A stretch of 61,514 nt of DNA, the filler included, from Hausera hauseri (Eukaryota), in the NCBI GenBank assembly GCA_046269625.1. It is 10 parts of 10 records of this genome, joined end to end, with 100 filler letters (N's around TTAATTAATTAA, not from the genome) between each part and the next. Parts side by side here need not be neighbours in the genome. Positions count along the whole stretch, not along the records: positions 57,516 to 61,514 come from JBJURY010828861.1; 9 more parts are not named here. One strand, given 5' to 3'. The translations under genes and the position numbers were made by a program. The notes under the pieces were generated by a model. It saw only the letters and a list, made by a program, of their open reading frames with translations, had not been told where the DNA came from and did no database searches. Positions 5,224-61,514 of this stretch are shown here, piece by piece (position 1 is the first letter of the stretch; each line of letters starts with the position of its first letter).

Positions 5224-5787
5224 TCAACAAATGGATAAATATTGATTTTTGTTTTTCACGCGTAATTCGTGAGGGATCCATTTGTTCAACTTTCTCACTT
5301 TTCCAATTTGTCGCAGGTGATCACAAACAGTTTTATTATCAACATCAAGTATTTTTGCGAGTTCCCGGATGGTTTGCCGCGGATTGAATTCAATAAGCTG
5401 TTTCAAAGCACAGTTATCAACGGACGATTGTCGGCCTGAGCGAGCTTTATCTTGAAGATTTGTATCTCTGGAACGGAATCTTTTGAACCAACGCTGAGCA
5501 AGTCGATCACTAACGGCGTTCTGCCCCACGCTAGACAAATATTGTGAGAGGCCTGATTTAAATTCATACAAAAGACACATTCGAATTTATTGTGACGTCA
5601 TAATTCCAATTAAGGTCTACAAATAAAGTAAAATAAAGATAGTGAAAAAGCTTTCTCTGAAAATTAAAGATTAGAATAGTTTAAAATTATTGATTATTAG
5701 ATTTTGTACATTCAACAATAAACGTAAGATATATACGCATTCAATTTTCAGTTTAGAAAAACCGGCAATACTTTTCCCTCAACATGA
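5224..5787 (-). mobile_element. Mariner element, 5' part (TIR plus N-terminal transposase), truncated before the catalytic domain
   Basis: WFKRFRS..LQDKARSGR and KWIPHEL (WVPHEL) motifs. Mariner-type TIR TA|TCATGTTGAGGGAAAAGTATTGCCGGTTTTT at 5789-5757 (minus strand). Confidence 0.85.
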
Positions 5788-12538: not shown

Positions 12539-13188
12539 ATGTTAGAAAAAATAACAACTTTAGACAGAAAGGTAAATAAATATTTCACACCTGGTTCAGT
12601 TCTGCGAAAACATTGCATTGGGTTTTGGTTTAGAAATGAAAGAATATTATTCAAAAAAATGTTATTGGCATAGTTACAACTCACGGAGGAAAGTTGGTCC
12701 AACGAAAGCCAAACATCTATTGGATTGATTCGAAAAGTAAAGTTTACATTCCACACGAGGGTGATCGTATTATTGCCAAAATTGCGAAAAAGACGAATGA
12801 CTATTATTTTTTAGATTATGGAGGTTTTTCCTACGCCCATTTGAATTATCTGAATTTCCAAGAAGCAACAAATAGCAATAGCCCAGATATAAAAATTGGG
12901 GACATTATTTATTGCCAAGTAATTCTGGCCGGACGTGGCATAGAACCAGAAGTTTCTTGTATTAATAATATGGGAAAATCAGTCGGTATGGGTGTTATCG
13001 ACCATACTGATGATTCGGTCATTAAACTTTCCCTACCATCTGTGAGGAAATTGTTGGATATTAAAAATTTTCCCTATTTGAAGAAATTAGGGTTAGGAAT
13101 TTTGCCTCATGAAATCGTTATTGGTGCCAATGGTTGGATTTGGTTGTCGGCCAGATCGAGCAGAGAATACTCTACGCTTTTGAATTGA
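12539..13188 (+). pseudogene. EXOSC3: Exosome subunit RRP40/EXOSC3, intronless, with 5' frameshifts and a premature end
   Basis: YWIDSKSKVYIP..GD.II, F..AT..N.P.I.IGDIIY, EPEVSC and IGANGWIW motifs. The N-terminus (FTPG / LGFGL / IVTTHGG) is split over three frames. Confidence 0.85.
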
Positions 13189-19521: not shown

Positions 19522-19746
19522 CAGGCCTAATGTTGTGACACATTTTGATACGTAATATATACATTAACTTTAAATTTATTTACTTTCCCGTTTATTTAAA
19601 CCACTAACTTGAGAAAACATTTTTGAGGTTTATATAGCTAGAGGTAGCAAATATTTAATTAACAACCTTTGTTTTAAACGGGAAATTTAATAAATATATA
19701 ATAATCTATATAATATTCATCAAGATGCGTCACAACATTTACCCTG
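19522..19746. mobile_element. Tc1/mariner-type MITE
   Basis: Imperfect TIRs TA|CAGGCCTAATGTTGTGACACATTTTGAT ... ATCAAGATGCGTCACAACATTTACCCTG. Confidence 0.7.
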
Positions 19747-21835: not shown

Positions 21836-22895
21836 GGGGTAAATATTTCAGTTGATTTAGAATGCGATTTTATCAGGATTTATTAAACAATAACAATTCA
21901 GAATTTGGTATAAAGCATAGTAAACTATAATTTTCATAGGATTCTCTGACAAGGGGTAAATATTTCAGTCTATATAACTCATTCGCCTTAGTTCTATTCA
22001 TTTTGTTTTAAACTATTTTCTTCTGCAACCCTTACAGTATTCAATAATTTAATTTAAATTAATTGGTTTATGATTTTTTATTTAACTTGAATGTTCATTT
22101 ACCGTATGAGTGAAAGTTTTGAAATAATTGTATATCTTGGGTAAATATTTCATTCCATAACACTGGTTAAAAGTGTTCTGTTGTGTATTGTTTCATTCTG
22201 TGTTTTCTACAATTTTTGAAACAACTACTAAGTCATTGGAAATTTTACAATAAATTGTTTATTTGGTAGTTTATAAAGCCTTGTAATATTTACCCCACAT
22301 GAGACTAATTGTGGATTTTATGGGAGTTAATATGTCGTTAAATGTAAAATCCTGTGTAAATTTCTTTAGTACAAAGTTGCTCATAAATGCAATTTATGTT
22401 TCATGCATTATAAAAAGATTTTTGATAGGGTTCTCTGAAAAGGGGTAAATATTTCATTCTGTATTACTGAATTATATTAGTTCTACACATTTCGTTTTTT
22501 TTACTATTTGTAAAAAAAAACAATATATGTATATTTTCCAGTATTCAATAATTCATTTGAAATTAACAATTAATTGTTTTTTTGGCTTTTTACTAAGCTA
22601 TACCTTTCATGTACCCATGGAAAAGAAATTTTTGTAATAATTGTATATTTGGGGTAAATATTTCACTCTACAGCACCCTGGTGTATTGATTCATTCTGTG
22701 TTTTGTACATCTTTAAAAACAAATACTATTTAATTGTTTCATTGGTAGTTTATACAGCCTTGTAATATTTACCCCAGATGAAACTCATTTTAGACTATGC
22801 GGAATTAATATTTCGTTGAATACGAAATTCTGCGTAAAAGTTTTTAGTATAAAACTGTCCATAAATTCAGTTTATTTCAATTTATGTTTCATACA
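21836..22895. repeat. Diverged tandem duplication of a ~490-bp unit rich in GGGGTAAATATTTCA motifs
   Basis: Motif at 21836, 21953, 22138, 22442 and 22651; inverted variants at 22282 and 22761. Offsets between paired copies are 479-513 bp. Confidence 0.85.
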
Positions 22896-28333: not shown

Positions 28334-31300
28334 TTACATTCGACACAGGTGTTTATAAATTATTAAGTATGAATAAATGAAAATGAGATTTACCCGATTA
28401 TAAAGGGGATCGCATCCGTTACAACGTAGTACAACGTACTTAATACATTTTTTATTGGAATCTTTGATATAGACGTGATATTCAAATACTGATGATGCCG
28501 ACTGACGTTCAGTTATCCAAGAAATATTTACAACTTTTCGTGATTCACCAGCAAATTCAGTAAAATTATTGACTTTTGGCACTAAACTAAGGTGATTCAA
28601 AAAGGATAAGAGGAAGGATGATTACCGCTGCCTGTGTAGAAGTATTTTGTTTCAGATGCATTGCCTGAGCTTGCGTTATTCTCAGTTTTCAGATCCGATT
28701 CTGGCACAACTTTAACATAATACAGCATATTCAGTCGGAGTTTAGTTAGGACAAATGATGTTTTATCTAATGGACAGTATTATTGACATTTTTATTTTCA
28801 GTACTTGTTCTTTCTTCACGTGTACTGTTGTCTGGAGTCCAGTAGATAATACGATATGATTTTCTGCATTCATCTGAAGTGTATCTCCAATTTATCACAA
28901 TGCTCGATTCCGTCCGTGATACCACATCGTTTAAATACACCTGACCCAATGCTGATCATAACTTAGGAACAAATTCCATTTAAATAAAATACCTCGTGCC
29001 AGAGTGTAATGACACACTTTCTTATCATACTCTGACATACCAGCATTGTTTACGACTCTCAGAGTAAAACAATATTCTGTACATACTTTTAGGCCGTAGA
29101 ATGAGTGAATGGTTTCAATAATATTTGCGGTTGATTCGTGTCGATTTGTGTTATCAGTCAAGACAATGTTATAGGAATCTGGACGTCCATGTTCTGGTGA
29201 TTCTACAGGCGCATCCCATTGGAAAGTCAAATGCTGCACACCTCTAGCATGCAATTTCACATATGAAGGAACATTAGGTACTACTCAGGCAAATTATTAT
29301 TGCATTATTAACTACAGGGTGGGCCAGAAGTTAGGGGGCAGTGACACATAAATTATTCAATCACTCACGTACACATCTAACAAGCGCTGAGATTAATAAT
29401 ATTTATATCTGGCTTGTTTATATCCACGCGCTCAGTTTTAAATGATAAATTGAGATGGATAGGGCAACGGGGAGGACTCGAGTGGCTCCCAAGAAGCTGT
29501 GTACTGTACTAAACCACGAATAACCAATGCTTTTCATTTAATTAATCCGGAGCTCTGTCACAGAATTTTGAAGTGTATTTGTAAATAAAAGTATCGCTTT
29601 TAATCCTTAAAACGTTAAATAAACTGAACAGATTGCCCCCGTAACTTCTGGCCCACCCTGTATGTCATAATAACCTTACCAGCTAATTTGGTCTTTATCG
29701 ACAATCGCTTTACGTCAGCAGTTTGCCCTTTGTCAGTAAATGGAATTATGTATACAAAATATTGTTTATTATTATGAAGGCCAGTAAATTCAAATGATTG
29801 TTCTGTGATTTCCTTATCGACTTTTCTTGCACAGGAAATGAAAAATGACCTCACAGCATTATCCTTCATTGAATAATAATACATTACACATGGAAAATGG
29901 TTCCTTACATCATTACATGATCCACATGGTTGTTTGGCGTATTGTTCGCATGCGTCATGCTCATTGTGCAGAAGTACGGCATACCCTTGTGATGGACTGG
30001 AGTGAATTGGTGAGGACCAGGATAACTTTATTGACTGGGTGGAATCTGTTATTTGCACATTGGTTACGCATCCGGTGGCTACTGGGTGTTAAATTTTTGT
30101 TGTAACGAATTATTTGTACCCGTATCAGTGTTGTTACAAAGAGGAACGTCACAACGGCCAAAACTGTTATCCACAGGACACCAGGTATAGTCATCATCTT
30201 TTGTTCTCCTGCAGAAATTAGATTTCACATTGTCGTATCTGCCTTTGTATCGCGATTTGTTCCATTCTGTGCATGTTTGCCCATCGATTGTGGTTGATCT
30301 AATGCCATCATATCCAATGTTATTGGCGCAGTCAGTGAAGCAGTCTTAGTTCAAAAAGACAACATATAAAGAGGCAACAAGACAATTTACAAAGGCACAT
30401 TACATTCAATTGGTGCATTGATAAACATTTTAATACCTGATGGGCCAGCAGCAACGAATTCAGTTTGGTGTAATGTCAGATGAAATTTGGAATCCAATAA
30501 CCAAACGGAAACAACGTATTTGCCTGCGGATTGCTGCCATTCTGGAGAAACAAACAAAACGCCATCGTTCAACGGTTTGTCTATTCTTTTGTGTCGTACG
30601 TTCGAGCAGACTGTCTGTCGTGAATGATCACGTAGAGACAAGGCATTTGTGAGTTCATGACAGAAATAATTACTGTTCACCAAGGTCAGACATGAGGAAG
30701 TGTGTGCTGGATCAGTTAGTTGAATGATCAATGGAGAATTATCACATTCAATTGTATTCATTTGACTTAATGACAGACGAAGGAGATTTGAGGAGATAAA
30801 TGAGCCGCTGACAGAGGCAGAGTTCTACAAAATTAATCGTCGTTATGAATGGCAATAAGAAAAAAGAAACAGAAACTACAGCAGCAGCAGCGGCGGCACG
30901 TTTGCTGATGAAAGTAACAAACGCACTCTGCCCAACACCGCCTCTGTTACGCCATCCGTTGACCGGTGCAATTTCCAATTGATATTCTCTACATAATTTC
31001 AATTTTCCTCCGCCTACCCATTCGCCAGTACGTTGAATCGTTGTTTGCTGAATCAATTCATTTGGCTACAGTAGAATAGATTCAATGAAATTTCTCATTG
31101 ATCAGTTTTACGTGATTGCAAATGTTCTCCTTTCGCAGCCGAATTGCCACTTTGTAATGCTTCACGACGCCATTTATTCGCATTGGCCGACTGAACGAAA
31201 TGTGAACATACCCACCTGTAAATGATCCAACTGCAACGTCATTGACACGATCACTCTCTACATCAATATCATGTCAAATGATCCTTGCCAATATGCGACA

Positions 31301-32341
31301 TTACCTCCTTCTTCTGTCGCTACTTCCATTCCGACTGATTCTGATCGTCGACGTCCGTCAAAAGGCCGTATCGTCACAACGTATTTTGTATACGACAACA
31401 AATTACCAATGATCAATGACTGCAATTCATTCCATTGCACAAATTCCCTACGGCAGTCCTTATCAACGTCGATTTTTACCGAATTTTCATTTGTTATTTC
31501 ACTCATTCTAATGACAAATGACGTGCAGAATTTCACTGGATCAGTGACAGTCACGATGTACGTTTGCGGTTGATCTTGTTGATAAAATGGTTTCTGCCAT
31601 TGGACAACAATTGCGCTTTCATTTACTGCAACTGCTGATGCATTACGAACAGGACCCGTTGTGGAGAAATCCGTGACTATTTCCAGACATTTGTATAGAC
31701 TCGTTGTCCACGTTTTGTCTACAGATGCTGCACAGATTTGATATTTTGTTCGTTCAGTCAATTTCGTGATGTTCACATTATTTTCTGATGGACTTATCGT
31801 CATTGTCCACATTTTCTCACTGCTACAGTAAGGAAAATACCAAATAAAATTGCCTACTTGTCCATGATAATTAATAAATAATGACTTATGTCATTTTGCT
31901 TGCTCCATGATAAAAATGCACTGTTGATACCAACTAATGTGCCATTTAATTCTATCGTTTTCGTATTTATGTTTAAATTGCATGTTCTATTCATTGGAAT
32001 GACAAATTTTCTGCTCTTCATTGAAATGCTAATGGACAATGAAAGCAATTTGTCAGAATGACAAGGTTTAAATGTTTCATTGTTAATGTTACTAACATTG
32101 CAACCATCACAAAACACCTTCATCGTAACAAATAATAACATCATCAATCAACAATTACCTGCACTGATTCTGCCGTCAAATCATGTTTTACTTGTACTGT
32201 ACATCCATGAAGATCGCATTTAACTGCAGGTTGAACTTTAGACAAATCAGGAAAATCAATTTCACCAAAAATTATCGTCACCAACAAAAAAACTACCACC
32301 AAAATCGGCACAAATATTTTCCATCTAAATTGCATCAGCAT
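28334..32341 (-). CDS. Multi-exon secreted or surface protein with several fibronectin type III repeats and one kringle domain; 3' end unclear
   Basis: Signal-peptide-like start and repeated FN3 signatures (V.WQKP, L..YTKY.V, WDAP..GL..CTEY.F). Kringle exon at 30120-30344. Many 35-47 nt GT-AG introns. One splice-phase conflict near 30825-30899. Confidence 0.8.
29315..29660. mobile_element. Tc1/mariner-type MITE inside an intron of the FN3 gene
   Basis: TIRs CAGGGTGGGCCAGAAGTTA..GGGGCA at both ends, flanked by TA on each side. Confidence 0.9.
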
Positions 32342-36343: not shown

Positions 36344-36360
36344 TGGTGCAACGAGTGAGG
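36344..36360 (+). other. Primer-binding site, elongator tRNA-Met-like
   Basis: TGGTGCAACGAGTGAGG one base after the LTR end; resembles the TGGTGCCCCGTGTGAGG complement of elongator tRNA-Met. Confidence 0.7.
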
Positions 36361-36496
36361 AGGCACACTGGCGTACAACACTCGAAATAGAGTTAACGCT
36401 AATATTGCAACTTCACGCACTGATTCAGCAAGGAGTAGTTGTGAATCAAACGAAAACCCTCTGATCAAATTAAATACCCTTATAGAAAGGAACCCA

Positions 36497-38700
36497 ATGT
36501 CTAGTTCTGGAATAGGAACTGGTTCAAATATAACTGCTACAATGGTCCTCCCGATGGATAAGTTTGAAGGAAAACCGGACCAAGATTATAGTGAGTTTTT
36601 GATGCAATATCAAATGTACTCACAGAGCTTCGCATGGTCAGACGAGCTTAGGATACAACGTCTTCCCTTACATCTTAAAGGAATAGCACTTACAGCTTAC
36701 AGATTATGATAAAACTGATTGGGCTAGCCTTAAGGACGCCTTGGAAGAAAGACTTTTAATAGACCCATCAGGAACAGGTCAAAATGGCGAGTTCAACAGG
36801 CGACGTCAGAGAAAAGGCGAAAGCGTGCAAGAATACGCATGTGCCCTTCAGAAATGGGCCCAGAGAGCCTATGCAGATGATGACATAAAGGGAAGATGCC
36901 CTCCTGGCTCAGTTTTGCTACGGAGTTACTAAGGAAATACAAAATTATATTATTGTGGCAGATCCCAACATATAAAGAAGGTGTTAGTAAGTCCAGTAAG
37001 ATAGAATTGAACTATGAAAGATTAAAAAATATTAAAAATCCTCACAAAACTGATGATAAAAAGATGAAAAACTCTCAGTTGAAGAAAAATTTTCAAAAAC
37101 CGTTCTATAAAATTCAGAATCAAATTGGACAACAGCAGAAGAAGGTTACGTGGCAACAAGATCAACTTCAGAAATCTGCGATGAAAAAACCAACGGTTAA
37201 TCAAAATGGACAGCCATTATGCTTTGCATGTCACAAATATGGACATATGGCTCGAACTTCTCCTAATCAAGGACAACCAAGTCAAAAAAATGTCTATATA
37301 GTAGGTAATATATCTGACAGGGATAATGAACACGAAACCACAGATACAGAACCCGAAGAAACAATTGAAAAGCTACAGCAAAAGATCAGATCCAAATTAA
37401 AAGAAAATAAAACCAATACAGTAGAAGAGGAAGATAAGATAGCTGAAATAAAACAGCTATATCTTGAATTAAAAGAGCAACAAATCTGTGAGAAAAGACA
37501 GAAAATGAATGATGAAAGTTCAGTTATTGCTCCTATTGGTAGACCCAAAAAGACTCCTGCATCAGAATCGGATGTTGAAAAGAAAAGGGTCAGAAAAAAA
37601 GATAAACCTTTGATACAAGAAGAAGAACTGAAGACTACGGAACTTAACTTACCTTCTGGAAGTAAAAGTGGAAAAAGCGAATCAAGTGAAGAAAGTAAAC
37701 CGAAGAAAAAGATAAAAGGAATAAGGAAAAAGAAAACAAATGAAAAGTCTCCAAGTTATGAGTCTTCATCTGTCGATTTAGATCAAGATGGCGTAGAAAA
37801 AATTCGGAAAATATCTAGCTATGCCAACCAAGAAATAATCGATGGCACTCGGTTTAAGCAAGACCTGTCTATGTTGCTATTGCCAACTATCAGCCATCAA
37901 CAATTTGCTAATTTACTGGATTTACTGTTAATATATGCTGCCGGTACAAGTCCATACCAGAACATCGTACGGTATATAATTTACCGATACGCGGACAGGG
38001 TGAGGACAATCGGAGAAAACCCTGAAGTAGTAGTTACTCTCCAACAATATAATCAAGACTTCCATGCTCTTAGAATGAAATCGTTGGATACAATAGTTAT
38101 GTTAAAACATAAAATTAACGAAATAAGCCAACCTCAAGGAGAATTGGAATTACGCTTTTATGGACGAGTGTTGATGGATTACGAAACTCTATATGAGGTA
38201 GGTATTTGGGAAAATCGATATAATCCCGTATGTATTACTTATAGACAGTCTGAGCAAGAGATAATTGATGAAATTATAACTGATGTTAGGCGAAAAGAAA
38301 TACAAGAGGCCGAACGCCAATATCAGGCTCAACCAGTGGAAGTGGGAGGAAATATACCTATATCGGAACAAATACAAACGGACAAAAGAAACCGTGGTAG
38401 ACCGAAAGGAACGACGAAACTTTACCAGTTGAAAGGCAGGAAAGCTAGAGATGACGAAGTTGTTCGAAGATTGTTAACAACGGAAGATGAATATGATGTA
38501 GATAATGTATCATTGGCAACATTACTACAAACCTTGCTAGCAAGAATGCACAATGCATTCGTTGAATTCAATACCAATTTACAAATACCAGACTCATTAA
38601 CGCAAAATATTAGGAACGAAATCGCAAAGATTAGTGAACAATTTGCAGATATTCCTACAGACGAAAGGATAAATGAAATACAGGAAAGAGATATATTATC
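36497..38700 (+). mobile_element. gag: Ty3/Gypsy gag (frameshifted) with a long C-terminal extension; truncated by spacer
   Basis: FEGKPDQDYSEFL..W..LHLKG.AL, RRQRKGESVQEY and the knuckle CFACHKYGHMARTS. About 480 further codons with no protease motif seen. Confidence 0.8.
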
Positions 38701-39537: not shown

Positions 39538-40047
39538 TAGGGTTACAGTACAGTTACGGTTAGGTTTTTACGGTTAGGGTTACGGTTACAGTTACAGTTA
39601 TAGTTACGGTTACGGTTAAGGTTACAGTTATAGTTACAGTTACGGTTACGGTTACAGTTATAGTTACGATTACAGTTACGGTTATGGTTACAGTTATAGT
39701 TACGCTTACGGTTACGGATACAGTTATAGTTACGGTCACGGTTACGCTTACAGTTATAGTTTCGGTTACGGTTACGCTTACAGATATAGTTACGGTTAGG
39801 TTTACGGTTACGGTTATAGTTATAGTTACGCTTACAGTTATAGTTACGGTTACGGTAACGGTTACAGTAATAGTTACGGTTACGGTTATAGTTACAGTTA
39901 CGGTTACGGTTACAGTTATAGTTACGGTTAGGTTTACCGTTACGATTACAGTTACAGTTACGGTTACGGTTACGGTTACAGTTATAGTTACGGTTACGGT
40001 TACAGTTATAGTTACGGTTACGGTTACAGTTATAGTTACGGTTACGG
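39538..40047 (+). repeat. Degenerate telomere-like hexamer array (TTACGG/TTACAG/TTATAG, one TTAGGG)
   Basis: About 85 hexamers; canonical TTAGGG at 39574-39579. Confidence 0.9.
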
Positions 40048-40049
40048 CT

Positions 40050-43000
40050 GAGTACCGGAAAGCCATTGCGTACTGACGATGAAGTGAGGGATTTAAAGCA
40101 CGGTTCAACAGTTCATGTTATGTTCCAGTTAAAAGGAGGAAGCGAACTGACCGTAGATAAGCTCTAAGAACGTATCGCGGAACGACGAAAGCCCATAAAC
40201 GAGTTAGCCTTGATTAGAAGGAGGCTGATGGACATAAATTTGAGTGAACATGACTACAACGTGTTCTACCAAAGTTATAAAAAGATTTTCTCAAATGTCC
40301 AAGAGGAACTATGTTTATTGACGACCGCAGCTAGAAAATTAAAGAGAACGTAACGCTACTGGAGAAGGAGATGGAGAAGTTGGACATTTCATCGAGGAAA
40401 AGTCACATAGGACCATAGTAGCATTGAAGAATTGGATTGAAATAGAAGCGATGGTCAGGAGGAATGCCATAGAGAGAGTGAGAGGGATAGAAGCGTTCAA
40501 CACAAATCAAGATGGTCGATATTCACCCGTAGAGAATAGGAGGTCGTACTTTACCACGAGATCACGGGCTGTAAATAGAGAGTACGAGAATACGAATTCC
40601 AAAACAAAAGAATGAGAAGTTAAAAAGGGAAGCAATCAAACCACCCCAATATACAGCGAGAAGATCGATCCCAGAGATGCTGGAATTATGATAAGAACGG
40701 TCAATGCAAATTCGGAGAGAATTGTAAATATTTACATCGACCTAGTAAGGACGATCAAAAAAGGATATGTTGGTATTTCGAGAAAAAAGAATGTAGGTAT
40801 GGGAATAATTGTAAATTCCTACATGGAAAAATTGGTAGCAAGGAAAAGGATAAAAACAGCTATGACAAGGAGGATATAAAGCAAAAAACTAAAAATTCTT
40901 GTGAAAACATAATAGGCACGACAACAAAAGAATCCGCACCACGGGCATTAAAGAATGAAGAAGGAAAAGAAGAAAAAAGTAAACAAAAGGATGTTAGAAC
41001 CTACGTTACCCAAGGTTCTGAGGAGACAAGTGAACAGGAAGAAATAGTAGCTCTGAGAACAGTGGAAGTATGGTTAAAGAATGGGAACAGAATGAAAAAA
41101 GCAATAATGTTGTTAGACGACGTTAGCACCGACAGTTTCGTCGATTCAAAAATATGTGAAGAACTAGGTGTCGATAAGAAAACAGAAAGGTTGACGATAA
41201 CAGTCGTCGGAGAGAAACAGACTGAGATGTCTATTGACAGGGTCAATATGATATTGATAAATATGGACCGATCGGTAGAAGTCAAATTTGAGGCGATCGC
41301 TATGAAAAATCCAACTGGAAACATAAGGGCAGTGAATTGGTCCAGAAAAACAAAAATAGCCCCACCTAAAGCACTTAAGGTTTCCCACATTGTCGCACAA
41401 CTTAGAAGTAAATGGTATTGTTGGGGCAAACTTTAGAGTTACACAGGTAAATCAGAAATATATGGCAAAATGGGTGCGCCAGTGGTGCGGTTAACTCCGT
41501 TAGGCTGGACCTGTGCAGGACAAATAAAAAAGGAAGAAAAAACATAAATAATAATTTCATAAGAACATTTTGGACAAGGACAGAGGAAATTCAAAATGAT
41601 CTGAGCTACCTATGGGAGGTCGACTTTAACATGGACGAAAAAGAGTTTGAGAGGAATAAGCAAGACGAAGAGGCAATAAAGCGGATATTAAAAGAAACAA
41701 TTTATCAAGAAAATAGATATTGTGTGCCGTTACCATGGAAAGGGGGATACAACCTGAAGTGGAAAACAATAAATGGATGGCAGAAAAACGATTGAAAACT
41801 CTGAGGAATAAGTTAGATAAAGATGAGGAGGCAAAAGCGGCCTATGAGAAGGTAATAGAAACACATACGAATGAAGGGTATATCCGAGTAGTGGAGGAAC
41901 AAGAGGAACAAGAGACAGCTTGGCTGTTGCCACATTTTCCGGTTATGAAAATCAATAGGGAAACCACGAAATGCTGGATAGTTTTCGATGCTGCTTCGAG
42001 ATATCGGGGAAAGTGCCTGAATGACTTTCTAGATCCTGGCCCGAAATTACAATTAGACATCATAGATATTATATTAAGGATGAGAAAACGACCATGAGTT
42101 GTCATATGTGACATCCAGGAAATGTTCTTACAGATTAAGGTGAAACAATAAGACAAAAAATATTTAAGGTTTCTATGGTATAAGGATGGGAAACTTAAGA
42201 CATACGAGTTCAATCGGTTAGTATTTGGGTTGAACGCCTCTCCATTTCTGGCACAATTGGTATCAAGGCATAACGCTGAAAGGTTCAAAGACAAATTCCC
42301 CAGAGCCGTAGAAACGATGGAATACTCTACGTATATGGATGATTGCATTGACTCTGTCAGCACTGAAAAGGAAGCTGTTTCGTTATACAGCGAGCTAAAT
42401 AAGATTTGGAAAAAGGCTAGGATGGAACCACGCAAATGCGTGTCAAACTCTAATGAATTGATAAAAATAATACCTATCACGAACCGAGACAAAGAATTCA
42501 ACATACTGGAAAAACCGATGTTGTCACCAAGACGTTGGGGATGAAGTGGAATATCGAAGAAGATAGATTCAAGTTTGAAGATCGTCGTAAGCAAGAAATG
42601 GAGATAACAAAAAGAACAATATTAAGCGCATTGGCGAAGATGTTCGACCCGTTAGGTTTCCTCAGTTGTTATACATTATCGGATAAAGTGTTTCTACAGC
42701 AACTGTGGATGACGAAAGTAGATTGGGATGAAAAGATCCCGAAAGAATTGAGTGAGAAAATAAGGATATGGATAAAAGGAATGGAGAACCTAAGTACAAT
42801 GAAGGTAACAAGGTATTTATATTTTAAGGAAGGTAACGACATTGAGATACATATTTTCTGCGACTCTTCAAGGTGGGGGTTTGGGGCGGTTGCTTATTTA
42901 AGATTGATGGTGGAAGGAAAGATTAAAGTAGTAATCATATGCTCGAAAGGTAAGGTGACACCGGTAAAGGCTGTAGCCATACCAAGACTGGAATTGATGG

Positions 43001-43076
43001 CAGCCTGTATAGGAGTCAAGCTAGGGAGAAAAGTGAGAAAAACTCTGTGCAACAAGAAGGAAGATATACAATACTG
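40050..43076 (+). mobile_element. BEL/Pao LTR retrotransposon gag-pol, 5'-truncated and degenerate
   Basis: Protease ALRTV..LLDDVS, LTPLGW, RT LPHFPV..TTK..IVFDA..CLND.L.PGP.LQ and YMDD, and Pao-type RH FDPLG..WD..HIFCDSS..IPRLEL. Confidence 0.93.
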
Positions 43077-43299: not shown

Positions 43300-46200
43300 A
43301 ACACGAGGAATCGACTCGAATATTCTGTATTACTGTTCGGTGATTGCATATTCAGTACTGTACTGACAAGAACAATATCCACAAAGGCATTTTGACTATT
43401 TCGAGGCGGAGCATTGGGAGCCCACCTGTGGGCCCGACACGGCGGCGACGAAAGCCCGGCCGTGCCCAACCACATGGGCCAAAGGGTACCGGCCACAGTG
43501 GGCACCACACTCCCACCAATCGTTTCGGTGGCAGTCGCTGCAACGGTAGAACAATAGCTAAATCAGCTAAGTGCTGAAAATGCAGCACTGTATGCAACAA
43601 TTAACAATATTAATAATAAATTGAATGAACTTTTGCTGTCCCGCCGAAGGGATTTTGTCCCTGATCGCGCCATTTCTTTACATAGAAGCCGGTCACAGTC
43701 GCCTGCGCGGTCATCTATCTACTATTATCATAGCAGATTCAATAAAAGTGCCAAAAATGCTGCCTATGGTGCAGATTTTACAATAAAAGTCTTTCATCGG
43801 ACACCGTTGTTTGCATTTACCACGAAAAGTTTAAACATCAAGCCCATAAATGCATTGCAGGCTGCACTTTCAAAACAGATTCGAACGACGGACGTGCCAC
43901 TTTTCTTCTAATAGTCGTCCTGGTTCACCTTTCCAAAAAAACTAAGCTTGCCGCCAGACGTCACGGCAAACTCTGGCAAAGGCACTGCTTTACCTTCTGA
44001 ATGCCGACACGCCTCTTTTGCTGTCTTTAAAGGCTGCAATCACTGCTCTTACAACGCAATCCATTGATTTTATCATTGACACAGGTGCAGCGATCTCTTT
44101 ATTGCCATAAACTTTTCCTGTCCAAAATTCGCCATTCAAAATCAAGTCTTTATACACCGCTTTGGGTCAACTGCTGTACATTTATGGCATGGCTAAACTA
44201 TCTTTTACCTTACCAAAATTTCCTTCACCTTTCCACTAGACGTTCACAGTTGCTAATGCCCAGATGGAAATTCTATGTTCTAATTTTTTATCCCGTTATA
44301 ATTTATTGGTTGACTGAAGTCAACGATGCCTGAGGAGTGGCACCACTGACAGCGTTAGTAAGCACATAAATAGCATTTCGACTACCACGCAGTCGATCGA
44401 TACGCGGACATCAATTTTAAGGAAATCAAAAACTAATTCGAATTTTCGTAACAATTACATTTTATTTCATAAATTTTTAAATCATAACGTTGATATTCAG
44501 TCGATGTTTGATGTCGATAATTGTGGTACTGTTACTAACGTTAATTCACTCGACAAAATCACTTCATCCAACACCATTTTCAATTCCACCGTTTTTCACC
44601 AAATACCAATTGACTTTACATAAGCAAACAATTCACAAATTGCATCCGCTACTACTCAAGCTGCTTCACCATCATCACTGAATCTCTCACAGTTGCCTGC
44701 AAGTTTGCAGCAATTCGTCAACACACAGTACTTTACATAACATAGTTACACAGCACCAACGACCAATACGTCAAAAGGTACGACCACTATCACCCCGTCG
44801 CAGGCAGGCTGTAGAAACCAAATGTCATGAACTAGAACGCTTCGACATTGTACGCCGTTCTAAATCACCTTGGTCGTCACATTTACATGTCGTACGAAAA
44901 AGAGCGGAACTTTTAGACCATGTGGCGATTATCGACAATTGAACAACTTGACCATTAATAGATGCATACCCCCTGCCACTCATCAAGAATATCTTGCATC
45001 GCCTTAATTCAACCGCAATTCATTCGACCATCGATTTGACCAAAGCATATCACCAAATACCGGTGGCACTGAATGACATAGAAAATACTGCTATCAATAC
45101 TCCTTTTGGTATCCACAAGTATCTGTTTAAGCCATTCGGTTTGCGAAATGCGCACAGATTTTTAGCGACACATTGACTAAATTCTCTCAGATTTCCAATT
45201 TGCGCACCTTTACATCGATAATATTATGATCGTTTCCTCTTAAGCCAAGCAACACGAAGAACACCTCCGTGCAATATTCCAACGCCTTAAGGACTATAAT
45301 TTACAAATCAATTTTGACAAATGCCATATCTTCAAAAAGTGCATCAACTTTTTGGGTCACGTTATTTGACCAGAAGGCCACTCTCTCCAACCAGACCAAG
45401 TTGAAGCCATTAAGAATATACAGTTACCACGTACGACCACTGAAATGCGCAGCTTGCTTAGTACACTACACTTTGCACATAAATATATACCATATTGTTC
45501 TGAACTGACAGAACCATTTGCACACTTAAGCGGCGGCAAAAATATCACAAAATTCAATGGATACCTGAACTGCTTGACAAATTTGATAAGCTATGCAAAC
45601 GAATTAAGACCGTGAACATTCTCGCTTTCTACAAGCCTGACGCGGAACTTATCCATACCACAGACACTTTAATCACTGCGGTAGGTGCTGTGCTTTACCA
45701 AATCCACAAAGGAAAAAACCAACCGCTGGAATTTTTCTCTGGTAAGTTAACACCGCCTGAAACTAGATACTCAACGTTAGATCGAGAATTATCGGCCATC
45801 GTTCTCTCTTTAAAGCATTTTTTCCACCTACTTGTCGCTTGCCATTTTACCATACAGACCGATCACAAGCTCTTAATTAACATAATGGCTATGAAACATC
45901 CTTCCACACGCCAAGAACGACAGATACCATATCTGTCGACATTTAACTTCGACATAAAACATATTAATGGGGTTGCCGATTTTTTATCTAGGTCGGTTAG
46001 TTCGATTAATTTTCACCAATCTTTACTCAAGCACAACTTCAACAGAACCAGCCATTTCAAAACATGCTTAATTCTTTCAAGTCTTGCACAAATATTGACG
46101 GCGTGGCTTTAGACACTTCCAAATCAGGTCAATCCGCAATAATTCTTGCACCATCTTTGCAAAGGCAAACATTTAATAGTGTACATTCGCTACACCATCC

Positions 46201-47949: not shown

Positions 47950-50900
47950 TATTTCGCCCAACCACTTACGCCTATCATCATCGCATGATAAAGCGACTTT
48001 TGTATTGGTCATCGTATACAGCTGGTGCACAATCGACCGGATGATCGTTTGTGACACAGCAGCCTTTGACTGTCCTTCTTCTTCATAGATACGGTGATAA
48101 TCACCGTGGTTTATTTCCATCTGAGCCAACTGAACTCCTTTGGCGCGCATTTTCGGCCCACCATCAGTTAAAAGGCTAATATTTTGACCATAGAAATATC
48201 CCTTCCCGATAATAAACCCGATATTCACTTTCATCCTTGAAGCAGCCCGTTTTGTTGGTGATCGCGCTGCTGTACAATGGATGATTCGGTGGGTAGTTGG
48301 ACGTGTCCTGTAATCCGTCTGACTGCATTTGCGGCAGTAGCTGTTCGCGATTGACTTTTTTCAGCCGCAGGAAAAAACCGTCTGTGTCACCGGCAATTAT
48401 ACTAATGTCACAGCCGTAAAACATTTGCCGGTAACGTGCCAAGTCGGGATACTGTAACTCATACATCCGCAACTTGCTCAGGTCCAATACCACTTGTCCA
48501 ATGTAACTTGACCGGTTCAGAACGACTTCTTCACTGTTTAACAGCACCGCAACCAATTCATCGGCAATGTGCATTGACTGCCGAAACTGTGCCTTGCAGG
48601 TATACGTAAACAGCCGATTTTCGCTGTTTCATAGGTGTACATCGAGCCGCTTTTTCAGATTCTCCACTGTTTTTCCTCACAGGGAATTGTTTTGCAGCTT
48701 GTAGTAGTCCTTTTCGAACTTTGTGCAATCTGCGGCTCGTTTTTGCAAAATACCATCTATGTACTCCTTGAATATTAAAGCCTGGGCAAATCGGATAGCG
48801 CGATAGAGCTGTGTGATGCGTACACCCAACCGAAAGTAAGACTGCAACAGACGACAATGAACTATGTAATTTTGCTTGGATTCATGCGTCATAAGCAGCT
48901 TCTTCACCTTCGAGCCCGGCGTACATTGGCTAATTGGTGCAACCGGCAGTTCATCCAGAAATTCATCAACTTATCTGTTACCACGAAATTGACCTCCATC
49001 TAGTTGCCGACTGAGCTGTTTTCTGCTGTTGTTGTGTCTGATGTCGACAGCTTTTCCAGTATTGTGTCTAGGTCTTGTTTGTCGACTACCCATTCAAATG
49101 CACCCAACGGCAAGGGTTGTGAAAACGTCCAGCCGTACAGGTTATTAATGTCGATATACAACAGCAATGTGGTATCATCACTGGTTACGTGATGCTTGTT
49201 AACAAATGCCATACTGCGACGAATACCAACGTCAAACATTCGGTACATTTCCGAGTCTTTCAATAGCTCGATATCCCGATCCAGTGACATCATAGCTGAT
49301 GCCCAACTCATTCCGGATATTGAGAAAAAATTGAGTGACTCAAGCATGTCTTCTGCCAAAACTTTCGCTTGAAACGCATGGAATACATCGGTTAATAAGT
49401 ACATATCCAGTTTGAGATACTGGAGCATGTACTCCAGCATGTTTGTACGGCCGAGTTCTGTCCAAGATTCTTGTGCTCTTTAATATTTATCTTCTGTGGT
49501 GCCTGTCCATCGCGGCGGTAATTACTCGGCTGTCCGGAGTCGCTCATATGATGTTGCAAAGTCATATGGAAATATGCCTTTGCTGCTTGCAATATGGAAC
49601 CAATTTATTCGTGCTGACGAGGACAGGTACTTCTTCATTTTTGTTGGGATTGTGGACAGTTCCCAGTGCGGAAATCCGTTGATTGTCCATTTCAGTATAT
49701 GGTGACAATAATAACCTTGCAAATTATGAAAGATCACCGGTAGGAATGGCCACACACGCCTTGCCAAATTGCATGAATTGCATGCTGCTCCTAGGAATCG
49801 ACCGGTAAAATGATCATGATCCGGTACGAGCCGTCCCTGTGCATTAAAAGGCAACATTTTGTGGCAGGGACAACATTCATCAATGACATCGAAAAGCAGC
49901 GGTTCATATTCTCATGTTTGTATCAAGGGCTTAATGCTATTGTTACTGTACCACTGTACGATTTCCGTTTCCACTATCGTTTCCAACTGTTGCAGGAAAT
50001 CGCGTAAATAGTTCCAGCTATGAAAAACGTAATTGAGGCTTTTATTAGAACAACCAACATACCCACGGCGATTGGAATGTGTTTTTGGTTGAATACGTTA
50101 TGCCGTGGTAGGATTGCCTCGATATCGGCCTATACCACATATGCTGGACTCTCTGTTTTCAATCAGTCACTGAATCTCAGCTCTTTTATGTATCTTGTTG
50201 TCCCTGATAAATTTTGTCTGCACAGCACCACATGTTATTCCAATGTCGTTTTTGACCTGAAACCATGGAGATATGTAGGACACCATTTACAATTTATAAG
50301 CTTTTTGATAAATTGGTAGTGATCCATGTTCAGCAATATGTCCAAATTGGTTACTTACACGTAGTGAAATTTACCTTCTTGCTCCAACAGCAACAAATTC
50401 ACCGAGCGTCCATTCAGGTTCCGACTGAGATAAATTATATCCACGTGTGGGTTTTGGTATATATTATCGTCTGCCGGTATTTCTACTATAATGTTGTACC
50501 GGAAAACGTTGATTGCGAGAGTAGGAATACGCCGTTCAAATGTCGGGATGGATTTCTGTTTCATCGGCATCCAGCTTTCATCGAATTCCAATTCGGCAAA
50601 ATACTAGCGATACTGCTTTGGACGATTTGTATGATTTCTAACCACTTCGTCGTATTTGAATATAGCCAGGATACTGTAAATAAAACAGTATTTGTCGTCG
50701 GAATTTGTGCATTCATTACCGCCAAAGACTGCTTTAGAGATGCAGGTGTCGGTATGAATGACCATTCAGACAAATATACCACGTCACTCGACTTTGTTAT
50801 GATAAAGCCGAGAGTGGCAATTCGTATAATTCGCCATTCACTACCCTTTTCTGTATAGTTGGCAATTTTCTCATCCAACTTTTCGCCTACATCGGCAATA

Positions 50901-57290: not shown

Positions 57291-57515
57291 GCGAGTAGTT
57301 AGAAGGGACGAGTTGGCGCCAACCCCCCCCCCACCCCCCGGGGAACGAAAAAAACAAACGGAAAGAGGACACATCCCCGGGGAAGAGAAACCGGCGAATG
57401 GAAAGAGGACACGTCNNNNNNNNNNNNNNNNNNNNNNNNNNNNNNNNNNNNNNNNNNNNTTAATTAATTAANNNNNNNNNNNNNNNNNNNNNNNNNNNNN
57501 NNNNNNNNNNNNNNN

Positions 57516-60500
57516 AAATTTGCTTTCCCGGATACAGTGACTGTTTATCCATTAGCCGATCAAAATTTGTTCTAATATCTTCTAAAGTACCAGTTGTAAA
57601 CTGTTCTTTTTCAATTTCGAATGGTGATCTGATGCACAATGAAAAGAACATCTCAGTGTCTTTTGTATTCCGCAGAACAACACGTTTCTTAAATTTCACC
57701 GACTTGCTAAGCGCAAAGCCATTATTCGTCTGCAGCAGGGAGCTATACGGGGCAATTAATGAAACTTCTTCTACTTCTTCTGCATCAGGATAGTCGATTT
57801 GAAGTCTTGGCTGCAATATTCTTGCCGTAATATCCAATCGTATTTGATTAACTAAGTACTGATGATGTCGTACTATTTTATTCTTCACCAACAAATCTTT
57901 AGCATTCAAAGAAATAATGCCCAGCAAATAGTTATATAAATCAATGCCCATATTTTCGTCCCATGTGTAATGCCCATCAGAGGTAGGATCGGCTGGTACA
58001 AAATGAACTGTAATAAATGCAAAAGACTCGGCAGCAATGTGGAGTTGATACGGTTCACAGAAGATGGGAAATTTGGATAGGGTTCCATCATGTGGTCGGA
58101 TGATAGTAGAAATGAAATTCGTAGTTGCATTCAATAATTGAATATCCTCAGAGAACTCGGTTCTATCTGTTGCATTTACATGGTTATCTTTCGAGCAAAC
58201 TGTTCGATCCGTTGCATTTAATACTCTCTCGGTAATTTGCCGAGTTGTGCTACTGTTATCAGTATCAATCGTTTCATCATTTCTGGTATCTGATCGTAAC
58301 GAATCAATATTATTAGATTCTTTAGTCTGACAATTTTCGTGACTAATTGGAAATGGATCGCCAAAATTGACAATGAAATCAATGAGTTTATCATCGGAAT
58401 CATTCGCATTTCGATACATCTCCAAATTTATATACATATCGTATGGACTTTTGTTGTTCAGTCGTATTTGTCTTGTTACAATTTCATGGCCAACGGGTTT
58501 ACTACCTAGTCTAAGAATAGGTTTCTGATCCTTTCTACCAGCAGTCATTGTAAATTCAATAGGAGCTCCAATTATACGAATGGACATAGGAATTGTAATA
58601 GGTTCGGTTTCGACTGTCTCCGTAGTTCCAGAAATCGTAATTTTATCCCCGTATGAACCCCACATATCGTTAAATGCAGTGACTTCAACGACGACCTTTT
58701 CATAACTATCAAGTATTCCACTAGAAGGATTAAAGTCAACTGCCAAACCATTTTTATGCTTAAGTTTGTTTTTGCAAAAATCATAATGCGCCAGATAGTC
58801 TGGTTTGCTTTGTTTGTCTGCAAGATTCGGTTTCAATTTGAAATTTACTTTAACATCATCTGACGATGCTTTGAAATAATCAATCAGAATTGAAAATTTC
58901 GTCACGATAGAAGTCGTATTTTCTATGACGATGTACTTTTTGACGTCTTGAAAGATGGCTACATCTTCACCAAAATCAATGCTTGTATGTCGTTCACATG
59001 AATCAATAGTATCTAAAATACTATATTCCAATCGAGGTCCTCGACATATTCCAACAATTTCCAAAACAATAGGTTCTGTCATATTTTCAATCAAACATGG
59101 AACGAAAATATCTTCCAATTCCGTCACAACAGAGCACGTAACTGCCAATTTTACAATAACTTTACCATTCGGTGATAAAGTTCCTGATTGAGGATCACAA
59201 ATAACGTTCACAACATTTGACTGATCTCCACGAGGACTTTGCCAAACGTATCTACATTCAACATGGCTCTGGTTGCATAAAATGACGTCAAATATTGTTG
59301 GAGAGATGACGTCAAAAATGACGTCAAATATTGTTGGTGGAGATCTGTTTCCTACTAGGGTAACCAAAAGAACTCTGTAATTTGTGCCTCGCAAATCTAA
59401 GGCCATGTAATGTCCACGTTCATTGCCAGTTGGTATTTTCATCTGAAGTGACATTTTTTTCAAAGTAGCATACTGACGTTTCTGTATGTTTTTCGTTAAA
59501 AATTTATTATTTATCGAAACAGTTCCATTGGTTATTCCAGAATGGTAACTCGAAATAGAGTTTGAAGGATAATCCATTGCGGAATGATTCTGGTCAGAGC
59601 TGGAATGTAAAGAAAAGATACTCGGGTTTGGATATGGGGTTAATGGTGAAAACAATGGTTTACAAACGCCGATATCATTAATTTGTGATGAAGATTTCGA
59701 AGGAAGGATGTTTTTAGCCACCACATGATTTGGACACGTTGTATATTTCGGATTTGGTTTTAAAATCGACGACTTCATGCGGCATTTTTTGCTCGCCCTT
59801 AACTTAGGAGCATGACCAGTTCTCTGTACCCTGTTGAAAAGTAAATTCATATGACTGTTCTGAGAAAAGTAATAAAGTGGCGCCGGTGTCAGAGATGGAG
59901 GATGTATGTCGATGTTTGTATAAATCTTATTATGCCTTTTAGATGGATATACATGAGGTTGACAACATGACTGATACATCACAGGAGCAGGTTTCAGTTT
60001 GGGAATATCAGTGAAGACTTTCTCACAAAATGATAATGGGATATTAACGAATTTTAGATTTGGATCGTATTTAACTGATACAATAACGCATTCATCATCA
60101 GAATCATCGGTAATATTGTTATTGTTCTGATCGTGCATCTCGTTCTCAGTGACAGGCACTTTCGTGGTTATAATTACATCTGCATCACTCTGCTCTGATA
60201 TTGTTTCATTGGGAGTCTGACTTCCAACGGATGCAACAGTCGATTCACATTTACCATCATAATGGACACTTTCATTAACATCAGGAGTATCAAGTGGATC
60301 GGTATCGGAATTACAATTAGAATTTACAAGAGGATTCGGAACAAGATGATCGTCAGAATTGTCAGGAAGAGTATTATTTTGACAATAAGGATTTGGTTCT
60401 ATACTTTTTTCAACATTACTGCAATCAGTATTGACCTTTTCAGGTGACTCGATGTCCAGATCTTCCGTATCAATTTGAAGACAATTCGACGGTTGTAATG

Positions 60501-60993
60501 ACACGGGGGAGAGTGTTGAAGTAGCGTTCAATGAATTTTCTGTATTCAAAGCATCTTCTGTGATTGAAAAATTGCACAATTCTTGATCTGATGAGACCCT
60601 TTTAGTTTCTGATTCTTTAATACCATTACTATTTCCTTCAATATTTCCATTCAACAAAACTTTATAATTCTGATTTTCCTTATCCTTACTGATAAACAAC
60701 GAAATATGGTCAAATTGACTACATTCGTCCAATTTCTTGTGCGGTGAACATGACTGTCGTCGTTTGCATTTATTAATTGCTAACGTCAACGCAGCAATGT
60801 CCGGCTTGCTTTTCCGTTGTGCCGTTATTCTTGTCGGTGAAATTGCCGGGGATATGTTAATTTTCACTTTTGGTTCTGTTTTGTTCGATGCATTTTCAGA
60901 TGGTCTGAATGGTTTCAATATTTCTGACACCATTGTTGTTATTTGGTATTCTTGTGATACCGGTATATAAAAAATTCCATTAGTTAATTCCAT
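57516..60993 (-). CDS. Mosaic ORF: hexokinase N-terminus, ~470-aa low-complexity insert, hexokinase phosphate-1 segment, DLEC1/CFAP81 internal region; truncated by spacer
   Basis: VSEILKPF (about 60993-60898) and IPTGNERGHYMALDLRGTNYRVLLVTL (about 59340-59480) are hexokinase-like. 59285-57516 matches DLEC1 (P..G.L.P, PC....M..P..L, DFG, NDMWG.Y.D, R.G...G...VTR..RLNN.SP.D). Confidence 0.8.
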
Positions 60994-61514
60994 TAGTGCG
61001 TCAAAAGAAATGAACGACTGAACTGTTTATTGCTTTTAAAATTTTCTATAATCAATTTCTAAATTAATCATCAAAAAATGACTCATTAAACCGTACAATA
61101 AAATGAAATAGACTAATATAAAACATTCAGTAATCATACAATATATCGAGTTTATTTTGTTTCAAATTCCAAAAATAATAGTTTCCATATGTAATCAAGT
61201 GCAGTGCAACTTTTCCTTTGATTTTGATATCACTTTTTATCGCTGACATCTTGGGGTTTAACATTTTAACCAGCATATGTAATACTGTTGTATGTTTTTT
61301 GTAACATAACGCTTTGGTCTTTTTGACTGTGTTTCAATGGCACTTAGACATCCGCTTTTACTAGAGAAACTTCTCTTTCATAAAATAATCTTCATTTATT
61401 GGTGGTCTCCTGAAAAGATTATTGAGACAAATGAAATGTATCAAAAGACCAGAGAATCGAGAAAAACTGTCAAATTTAAATTCTCCAATTGCATTAAATT
61501 CTCCAATCGTAAAA

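Follow-up and report, generated by a model that had tools for sequence, protein, structure and literature searches.

How did a single reading frame of Hausera hauseri (assembly GCA_046269625.1) come to combine parts of a hexokinase (HK), of the ciliary protein DLEC1 and of a third, unrelated coding sequence? The window (the whole stretch of DNA analysed, 61,514 nt) consists of 11 stretches set apart by 10 identical 100-base spacers, and the chimeric ORF lies alone on the last contig (57516-61514, 3999 nt). On the minus strand, a stop-free frame runs from an ATG at 60993 to 57517 (1159 codons; composition-based chance of such a frame, about 1e-37), confirming the 3.5-kb stop-free mosaic described in the first-pass annotation; its 3' end is without a stop, and the frame enters the assembly spacer at 57515. 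Given that the window is made of contigs joined by spacers, linkage of the "neighbouring genes" to the chimeric ORF is not demonstrated, and the broken, intron-rich genes with which it was previously contrasted need not be its neighbours, being placed on separate contigs beyond spacers. Those contigs carry RRP40, a fibronectin type III receptor and transposon remnants, in keeping with an AT-rich, intron-bearing animal.

Along the ORF, the parts are ordered as HK-a, insert X, HK-b, a 36-nt filler, a DLEC1 piece and HK-c. The locus is a collinear HK backbone in which two stretches were swapped for pieces of unrelated genes, with four joints (60888/60887, 59492/59491, 59337-59301 and 57593/57592, located from contig ends, loose ends and matches). 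Three junctions had been annotated before, at about 60898, 59480 and 59300; these joints exist at shifted positions, and the one at 57593/57592 was added. Neither a second HK, X or DLEC1 sequence within the window nor any Rfam match (0) was found. Six runs contained part of the contig (at best 0.96 of its words), four of which (X1-X4) were aligned, as contigs only, while X5 and X6 (shares of 0.07 and 0.06) were omitted. The features are as follows:

61420..61514, no strand: end of a high-copy repeat and end of the contig; depth 5719 (run X1, last bin), several different loose ends at 61420-61496
60994..61419, minus: upstream non-coding region, stops in all frames; common to other HK copies up to about 61044, remainder locus-specific
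57517..60993, minus: whole chimeric ORF, 1159 codons, 3' open at the contig end
60958..60997, minus: probable small in-frame scar, codons 4-12; perfect direct repeat of 12 nt at 60997 and 60984
60888..60993, minus: HK-a, 5' part common to other hexokinase copies; bin depth 368; 60888 joined to 59439 in a run X2 contig
59492..60887, minus: insert X, 1396 nt, 465 codons, S/N/P-rich, probably disordered, 0 in-frame stops
59338..59491, minus: HK-b, phosphate-1 region of hexokinase, motif Gly replaced by Arg
59302..59337, minus: 36-nt in-frame filler of overlapping flank copies
57593..59301, minus: internal DLEC1 piece, 1709 nt, intronless; both ends within Ig domains (start at position 20 of 105 of the sixth, end in a later one)
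57516..57592, minus: HK-c, hexokinase resumed and cut by the contig end; HK1 267-292, Pfam Hexokinase_2 from about position 39-48 of 242
57416..57515, no strand: assembly spacer, not biological (44 N, 12 bases with stops in all frames, 44 N)

The hexokinase origin of the backbone was best supported in its central and terminal parts. HK-b was matched by Pfam Hexokinase_1 at aa 514-550 (E 1e-8); the first Gly of its DLGG motif is replaced by Arg, which bears out the annotated return to hexokinase with DLGGT changed to DLRGT. It is one residue short before the phosphate-1 motif with respect to solved hexokinases, and its best single-domain match was PDB 1bdg, a schistosome enzyme (34.3 bits vs. 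26.1 for the best HK1 domain among the matches listed), a weak pointer to a flatworm. HK-c (aa 1134-1159, the last 25-26 codons, 57592-57517) matched HK1 267-292 in the PDB search, and its 77 bases were all the same as in other HK copies (77/77). The HK match halts at HK1 ~98-103 and restarts at 267, with about 163 HK codons absent at the DLEC1 site (HK1 numbering). HK-a, with start codons at 60993 and, in frame, at 60933, had no PDB match on its own at E<=10; the hexokinase-like start (VSEILKPF) reported earlier was therefore supported only indirectly, by multi-copy depth and by a contig joining HK-a to HK-b. Unlike HK-a and HK-c, HK-b showed little extra depth and carried sequence changes, which hints at some age. 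A search for the parent HK with aa 500-560 gave none in two candidates, and none of 24 viral candidates was related to HK-b.

An active hexokinase requires an intact phosphate-1 motif (DxGG) and the sugar-binding and catalytic residues of HK1 104-266, a segment that includes the catalytic Asp; the former is altered and the latter are missing. With the phosphate-1 Gly changed to Arg and the catalytic region gone, any chimeric product would be incapable of acting as a hexokinase.

The second major part was assigned to DLEC1 by Pfam (Ig_DLEC1_6th at aa 565-648, E 9e-16) and by a PDB match of aa 571 to about 1090 to mouse DLEC1 (9ijj_O, E 4e-33). The annotated internal DLEC1 stretch of about 590 aa was thus correct in identity and reduced in length to about 570 codons, since the last 25-26 codons are hexokinase. 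The piece spans only residues 986 to about 1500 of mouse DLEC1: homology to the DLEC1/FAP81 orthologues is clear, while their full length (about 1640-1740 aa) with whole Ig/ASH domains is absent. Its closest relative, P0002, was 48% identical over aa 587-1127, and the 3' end of the piece falls mid-domain in that protein (aa 574 of a match at 547-597). Lineage-specific changes were similar in the DLEC1 piece and P0002 (38 vs. 44 in 490 columns, with fish outgroups; p 0.58), so that at the sequence level the piece appears to have undergone neither decay nor excess change. Further DLEC1 relatives were found in none of 5570 longer candidates, 29 metagenome stretches and 84 viral stretches.

A model of HK-b, DLEC1 and HK-c had a mean pLDDT of 43, with two or three Ig domains (pLDDT 70-87) as its sole usable part; its top Foldseek match was mouse DLEC1 9ijj_O. 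In this model, strands of HK-b and the filler may complete the first Ig domain, a low-confidence feature that could be an alignment artefact. If made, the product is neither a kinase nor a working DLEC1, but a disordered arm followed by two or three complete Ig domains and a truncated HK tail; it would most likely have no selected role so far. The breakpoints lie within domains, and look random rather than selected.

Insert X showed the pattern of a coding sequence, with no stops in frame vs. 23-53 in the other five frames, and codon-position GC values of 0.41 (GC1), 0.38 (GC2) and 0.31 (GC3). No homologue was detected in the ESM Atlas (two blank results), PDB (0) or Pfam (nothing above cut-off), and none of four candidates from viral contigs was related to it. 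The annotated stretch of about 470 aa of unrelated, S/N/D-rich sequence was in this respect upheld, and refined to 465 codons rich in S/N/P. The sole match among 1.84 billion representatives, the repetitive Daphnia protein P0005 (68 aa at 35%), was rejected as summed chance matches, and a single-sequence fold (pLDDT 31.6) was uninformative. Low-depth variants of part of X, about 90% alike, were present in run X1 (depth 2.9 and 4.7). An intron was ruled out as the nature of X by the coding pattern and by the lack of GT-AG at its ends. A strong donor-like site was noticed at 60689 within X, without matching intron-like sequence.

In agreement with the earlier statement that no intron is evident in the frame, no canonical splice signals separate the parts, and a GT-AG pair able to remove an insert was absent at every joint. 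Splicing would be unable to restore HK, because HK codons are missing. An acceptor-like site (59355-59345) and a donor-like site (57590) were detected, both weak and both inside HK sequence.

The joints themselves carried a record of how they were made. Three elements make up the filler between HK-b and DLEC1: the DLEC1 start copied perfectly over 23 nt, a slippage copy of 11 nt and a few bases resembling the HK end; no codon shuffle out of 200 gave such a 23-nt repeat. The contig has five perfect, closely spaced repeats of at least 11 nt: three at the filler, one (12 nt) at the start codon and one within the upstream repeat. Templated from nearby sequence, the filler is the kind of scar that alternative end joining typically leaves, and it has the direct or inverted flank copies that define insertions by SD-MMEJ or TMEJ. 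The 12-nt repeat in the start region probably represents a further in-frame scar, as it lies where other copies diverge, with exit at 60985 and entry at 60957, while no templated scar was seen at the X joints. As in class 2 templated insertions, target-site duplication and poly(A) were absent and recipient bases had been deleted. Regarding possible carriers, 95 nt of repeat were found on the upstream side only, the 3' side being beyond the contig, and no terminal inverted repeats were found among the 25 longest of 47 inverted pairs in a contig cut at both ends.

The joints, for which support from reads had been called for, were compared with the run contigs, and all four were crossed in run X1, three of them by 30 nt. 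These results rest on 26 pieces and 16 loose ends among the matches listed, a further 116 pieces and 40 loose ends lying outside the listing. In run X1, the interval 57563-59439 is covered by one contig of 1877 nt (depth 127, no differences), which spans the HK-b/DLEC1 joint and enters HK-c by 30 nt; contigs covering 59462-60131 and 60417-60917 extend 30 nt over the two X joints. The first joint was bridged by 35 nt in run X2, and the third was bridged in run X4; a small residual depth was observed near the third joint. The bridging rule of the tool is 31 nt, and the overhang of just 30 nt on the HK side probably reflects the break point of a k=31 graph on entering a repeat. Runs X2-X4 were of low depth and of the same year, and were not counted as independent; X1 may be the source sample and X2-X4 carry-over, so that joint support amounts to one good data set.

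Depth differed markedly among the parts: 83-92 over insert X, 127 over DLEC1, and 368-421 (bins) over HK-a and the near upstream region, with a residual depth of about 850 per base, inflated by overlaps, over HK-c. The HK parts are multi-copy. Upstream, depth was 421 at 61000-61133 vs. 113.7 at 61134-61267, with a loose end at 61044; because other HK copies share sequence to at least 61044, the hexokinase promoter suggested in the first-pass annotation has a plausible upstream context. A loose end at 57592, present in all four runs, reads N-T-E-W-G-A-F-G-E (hand translation), the sequence that normally precedes this point in hexokinase. A run X2 contig links 60888 to 59439, omitting X, and the DLEC1/X depth ratio of 1.46, together with the contig boundary shared at 59439, suggests that DLEC1 is present and X absent in about a third of the locus copies. 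Letter differences in runs X2 and X3 were treated as probable errors, since they lay in contigs of depth <5, included changes at conserved DLEC1 residues and were not templated by nearby repeats.

Over 57650-59123, run X1 had exactly one contig, with a flat depth of 127.3 in all 11 bins and no residual in both bins checked. No near-identical donor of X or DLEC1 was seen in run X1 at 80% likeness, and contigs were unbranched on the insert side of all four joints, although contigs drop records and simplify graphs, and absence read from them cannot be proof. A young copy made within this genome would be expected to produce branching there and to be picked up at that likeness. Of the refuting condition stated earlier, an only DLEC1 locus whose parts are spliced apart, one half agrees with these data: the DLEC1 copy appears to be the sole near-identical one in X1, but no canonical splice signals separate the parts.

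On balance, the locus is read, at about even chances, as a young chimeric gene or pseudogene, produced by two replacement captures during germline break repair, probably templated by cDNA, and as yet without a role. Fragment capture, as first annotated, was substantiated by contigs crossing the joints, by the collinear HK pieces and by one templated scar. One member of the multi-copy HK family would have been hit by two germline replacement events, each removing an HK piece and closing the gap with a coding stretch copied from another gene; template switching and alternative end joining would have united the pieces, the 36-nt filler being the resulting scar. About 163 HK codons would have been replaced by DLEC1 and a short HK stretch by X; depth suggests that DLEC1 was captured first and X second. 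The templates were probably mRNA or cDNA, because each insert consists of coding sequence only, lies in sense orientation and has no introns. In mouse testis DLEC1 belongs to the germ-cell genes, and in Chlamydomonas it is a protein of the central apparatus (PMC7642295), which agrees with capture in the germline, and mouse Dlec1 exons 28-33, as given in the same source, total about 830 bp, so that the vertebrate gene is intron-rich where the captured piece is intronless. The open frame would be due to sense-strand templates and to a scan that selects long ORFs, and possibly to nonsense-mediated decay of out-of-frame versions. Against a young capture stand the lack of a near-identical donor, the changes in HK-b, the low odds of four in-frame joints and of frame survival given below, and the presence of a clear templated scar at one joint only; templated insertions, as described in PMC5110952, leave donors intact.

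Age and frame were considered together. The perfect repeat caps divergence since formation at about 6%, and the identity of HK-c (77 nt) caps it at under 4%. Under neutral change, the frame would survive with a probability of 0.20 at 1% divergence, 0.04 at 2% and 0.0003 at 5%. Four joints would all be in frame by chance in 1/324 cases for DNA templates and in 1/81 for sense-only templates, which is not proof of selection, because a many-window scan for long ORFs could reach such values. Nor does another HK-derived copy keep its frame: on leaving the shared sequence at 60922 it meets a stop two codons on (hand translation). The filler, the one-residue shortfall of HK-b and the start-region scar all preserve the frame, as does a 15-nt deletion in run X2. 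Scars, frame and lack of decay mean that the chimera is either very young or selected. Of the earlier proposal that frame keeping indicates selection or a very recent origin, youth gained support at the joints (23-nt repeat, 77/77), while selection is not demonstrated and near-identical donors were not seen. A very young copy should be accompanied by near-identical donors and none was seen in run X1, hence a paradox, to which older selection, lost donors and foreign donors are possible answers.

The first of these answers is an older chimera kept by selection, whose donors diverged beyond 80% or were lost, with HK ends homogenised by gene conversion and the 36-nt repeat arising later; its product would be a germline or ciliary scaffold with Ig/ASH domains and a disordered arm, under the HK promoter. 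It would account for the unseen donors, for a 3.5-kb frame that is intact even though more than 2% neutral drift would break it, for the frame-preserving scars and run X2 deletion, and for the drift of HK-b. It is considered rather unlikely, given that the perfect repeat sits exactly at the joint, that HK-c is identical over 77/77 bases, that breakpoints fall within domains, that about a third of the locus copies seem to be without X and that the chimera is absent from a collection of 15 billion proteins.

A retroelement route, with HK as passenger in an LTR-type element and a reverse transcriptase switching among co-packaged mRNAs to insert X and DLEC1, was judged unlikely. The anatomy resembles that of LTR-mediated retrocopies as reported in PMC5131818 (carrier ORF partly replaced, several parents, de novo filler), the inserts are in sense orientation, a high-copy repeat lies 430 nt upstream, and Bel/Pao and Gypsy-type remnants occur in the assembly. 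The upstream repeat, however, was not assigned to an LTR element, HK copies appear by eye to share diverged upstream DNA, which fits duplication at the DNA level, the filler of 36 nt exceeds the reported 2-26 bp and resembles end joining, and the donors would still be missing.

Recent capture by a resident HK copy of inserts belonging to a different genome, be it that of a related species, prey, a host or foreign sperm, is quite unlikely, even though it would explain together the young scars, the lack of donors in X1 and the undecayed DLEC1, and would give a place to the low-depth X variants, unless these are carry-over or artefact. Both GC3 (0.30) and the CpG ratio (1.05-1.09) are like those of the window's other genes, so that any foreign donor would have to be compositionally similar; two outside captures are rare a priori, and no relative was found in viral or metagenome contigs. 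Very unlikely is a broader proposal, in which the HK family is a landing cassette that repeatedly takes in-frame mRNA pieces from foreign or used-up donors, giving a set of putative expressed chimeras. Among the loose ends listed, several different sequences depart from the shared HK 5' end, at 60985, 60957 and 60922, as this proposal would predict.

That the pieces were moved rather than copied, so that these would be the sole remaining DLEC1 and X after a complex rearrangement, the DLEC1 part perhaps being spliced as an exon, is decidedly improbable. The single near-identical copy in run X1, the undecayed DLEC1 and the splice-like sites at 59355-59345 and 57590 are compatible with it, but those sites are weak and within HK sequence, two genes would have to break and fix, the remaining DLEC1 exons would need to flank a collinear HK gene, and mouse fertility is reported to need DLEC1 (PMC7642295). 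Misassembly or a library chimera, suggested by three joints at which X1 contigs reach just 30 nt into the HK side (below the 31-nt rule) and by the possible source and carry-over status of the runs, is most improbable in view of joints lying within contigs (depth 83-127) that a separate assembly pipeline produced, of the 30 nt probably being the expected k=31 graph break at a repeat, and of in-frame collinear HK flanking each insert, unlike misjoins.

Under the preferred reading of a young double capture, the locus shows with unusual clarity exon shuffling that involves neither introns nor a visible transposon carrier: it unites two kilobase coding captures, four in-frame joints and a readable scar, with uninserted and probably half-inserted forms in the same samples, so that raw reads could test the order and mechanism of chimeric gene birth. 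Truly absent donors would point to a new gene under selection, to the loss of a conserved ciliary gene or to animal-to-animal transfer; if donors exist, the chimera would be a lucky in-frame pseudogene. The joint sequence was not found in metagenome contigs (0).

Chimeric genes of mixed parentage are well known (PMC5470649), and no description of a hexokinase/DLEC1 chimera was found in titles and abstract starts. The present one was filed under no known class, because an intact donor, LTRs and TIRs were not seen. Its unusual traits are that the scaffold is a gutted metabolic gene, that two kilobase-size replacements are in frame and that the donors are missing. Class 2 TSIPs, as outlined in PMC5110952, likewise patch a germline break from a distant transcribed source, with recipient loss and without target-site duplication or poly(A), whereas here two patches of 1.4 and 1.7 kb lie in frame in one gene, about 490 nt of the recipient were lost at one site and donors were not seen. 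The LTR-mediated chimeric retrocopies presented in PMC5131818 share a carrier ORF partly replaced by internal gene pieces and then resumed, but the carrier here is a metabolic gene family, and no LTRs were seen on the contig. SD-MMEJ, or polymerase theta, scars of the kind treated in PMC2943611 resemble the filler in their overlapping flank copies and multi-round synthesis-dependent end joining, and account for one joint, not for kilobase captures. With Pack-TIRs (in the account of PMC8277862) the locus has in common template-switch gap filling in a multi-copy sequence, although no TIRs were found in the contig and the carrier is a host coding sequence. As in the jingwei-type chimeric retrogenes covered by PMC5470649, a metabolic gene was newly fused in frame with parts of unrelated genes; in jingwei the enzyme copy is the insert and is active, while here, as far as the sequence tells, the enzyme is a gutted scaffold.

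At the shared hexokinase (HK) 5' region, which the chimeric ORF has in common with other HK copies, several differing sequences in contigs of sequencing runs X1 and X2 departed or joined at window positions 60922, 60957, 60985 and 61044, and rearrangement may also have occurred in those other copies. Within insert X, the coding stretch for which no homologue was found, the part at 60109-60446 was ~90% alike to two X1 contigs with a depth of only 2.9 and 4.7; these could stem from a relative or from carry-over, or could represent a rare variant. In the DLEC1 piece, 15 nt (57865-57879) were deleted in-frame in one X2 contig (depth 4.2), which could reflect either a sequence error or a genuine allele. 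A DLEC1 linker contained a 42-nt tandem duplication (58143-58220), with copies 75% alike, that was not present in P0002, the closest relative of this piece; the duplication was regarded as an older event.

The 100-base spacers, all identical and each carrying a 12-base all-frame stop motif, were located at ten places within 14062-57515; the contigs on either side are unrelated, and the order of genes across the spacers carries no meaning. The following features were recorded on the other contigs:

12640-13185 (+), RRP40 exon
28931-31890 (-), fibronectin type III receptor exons
36359-38700 (+), Gag-like frames, judged by eye
40624-43074 (+), Bel/Pao remnant in which CCCH zinc fingers and Peptidase_A17 were recognized
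45504-46109 (+), reverse-transcriptase RNase H piece
49003-49911 (-), fragments of protein-primed DNA polymerase B and of endonuclease VII
5227-5586 (-), mariner HTH
39540-40045, short-period tandem array
19529-19739, imperfect palindrome of 210 nt
21931-22875, tandem duplication (69%)

RRP40 and the fibronectin type III receptor are ordinary host genes. Among the mobile-element remnants, the polymerase and endonuclease fragments at 49003-49911 were taken to be Polinton-like. The Gag-like frames, which include a zinc-knuckle-like motif, showed a weak ubiquitin-like match (E 4e-4, below the cut-off), and are possibly a retroelement carrying a captured domain.
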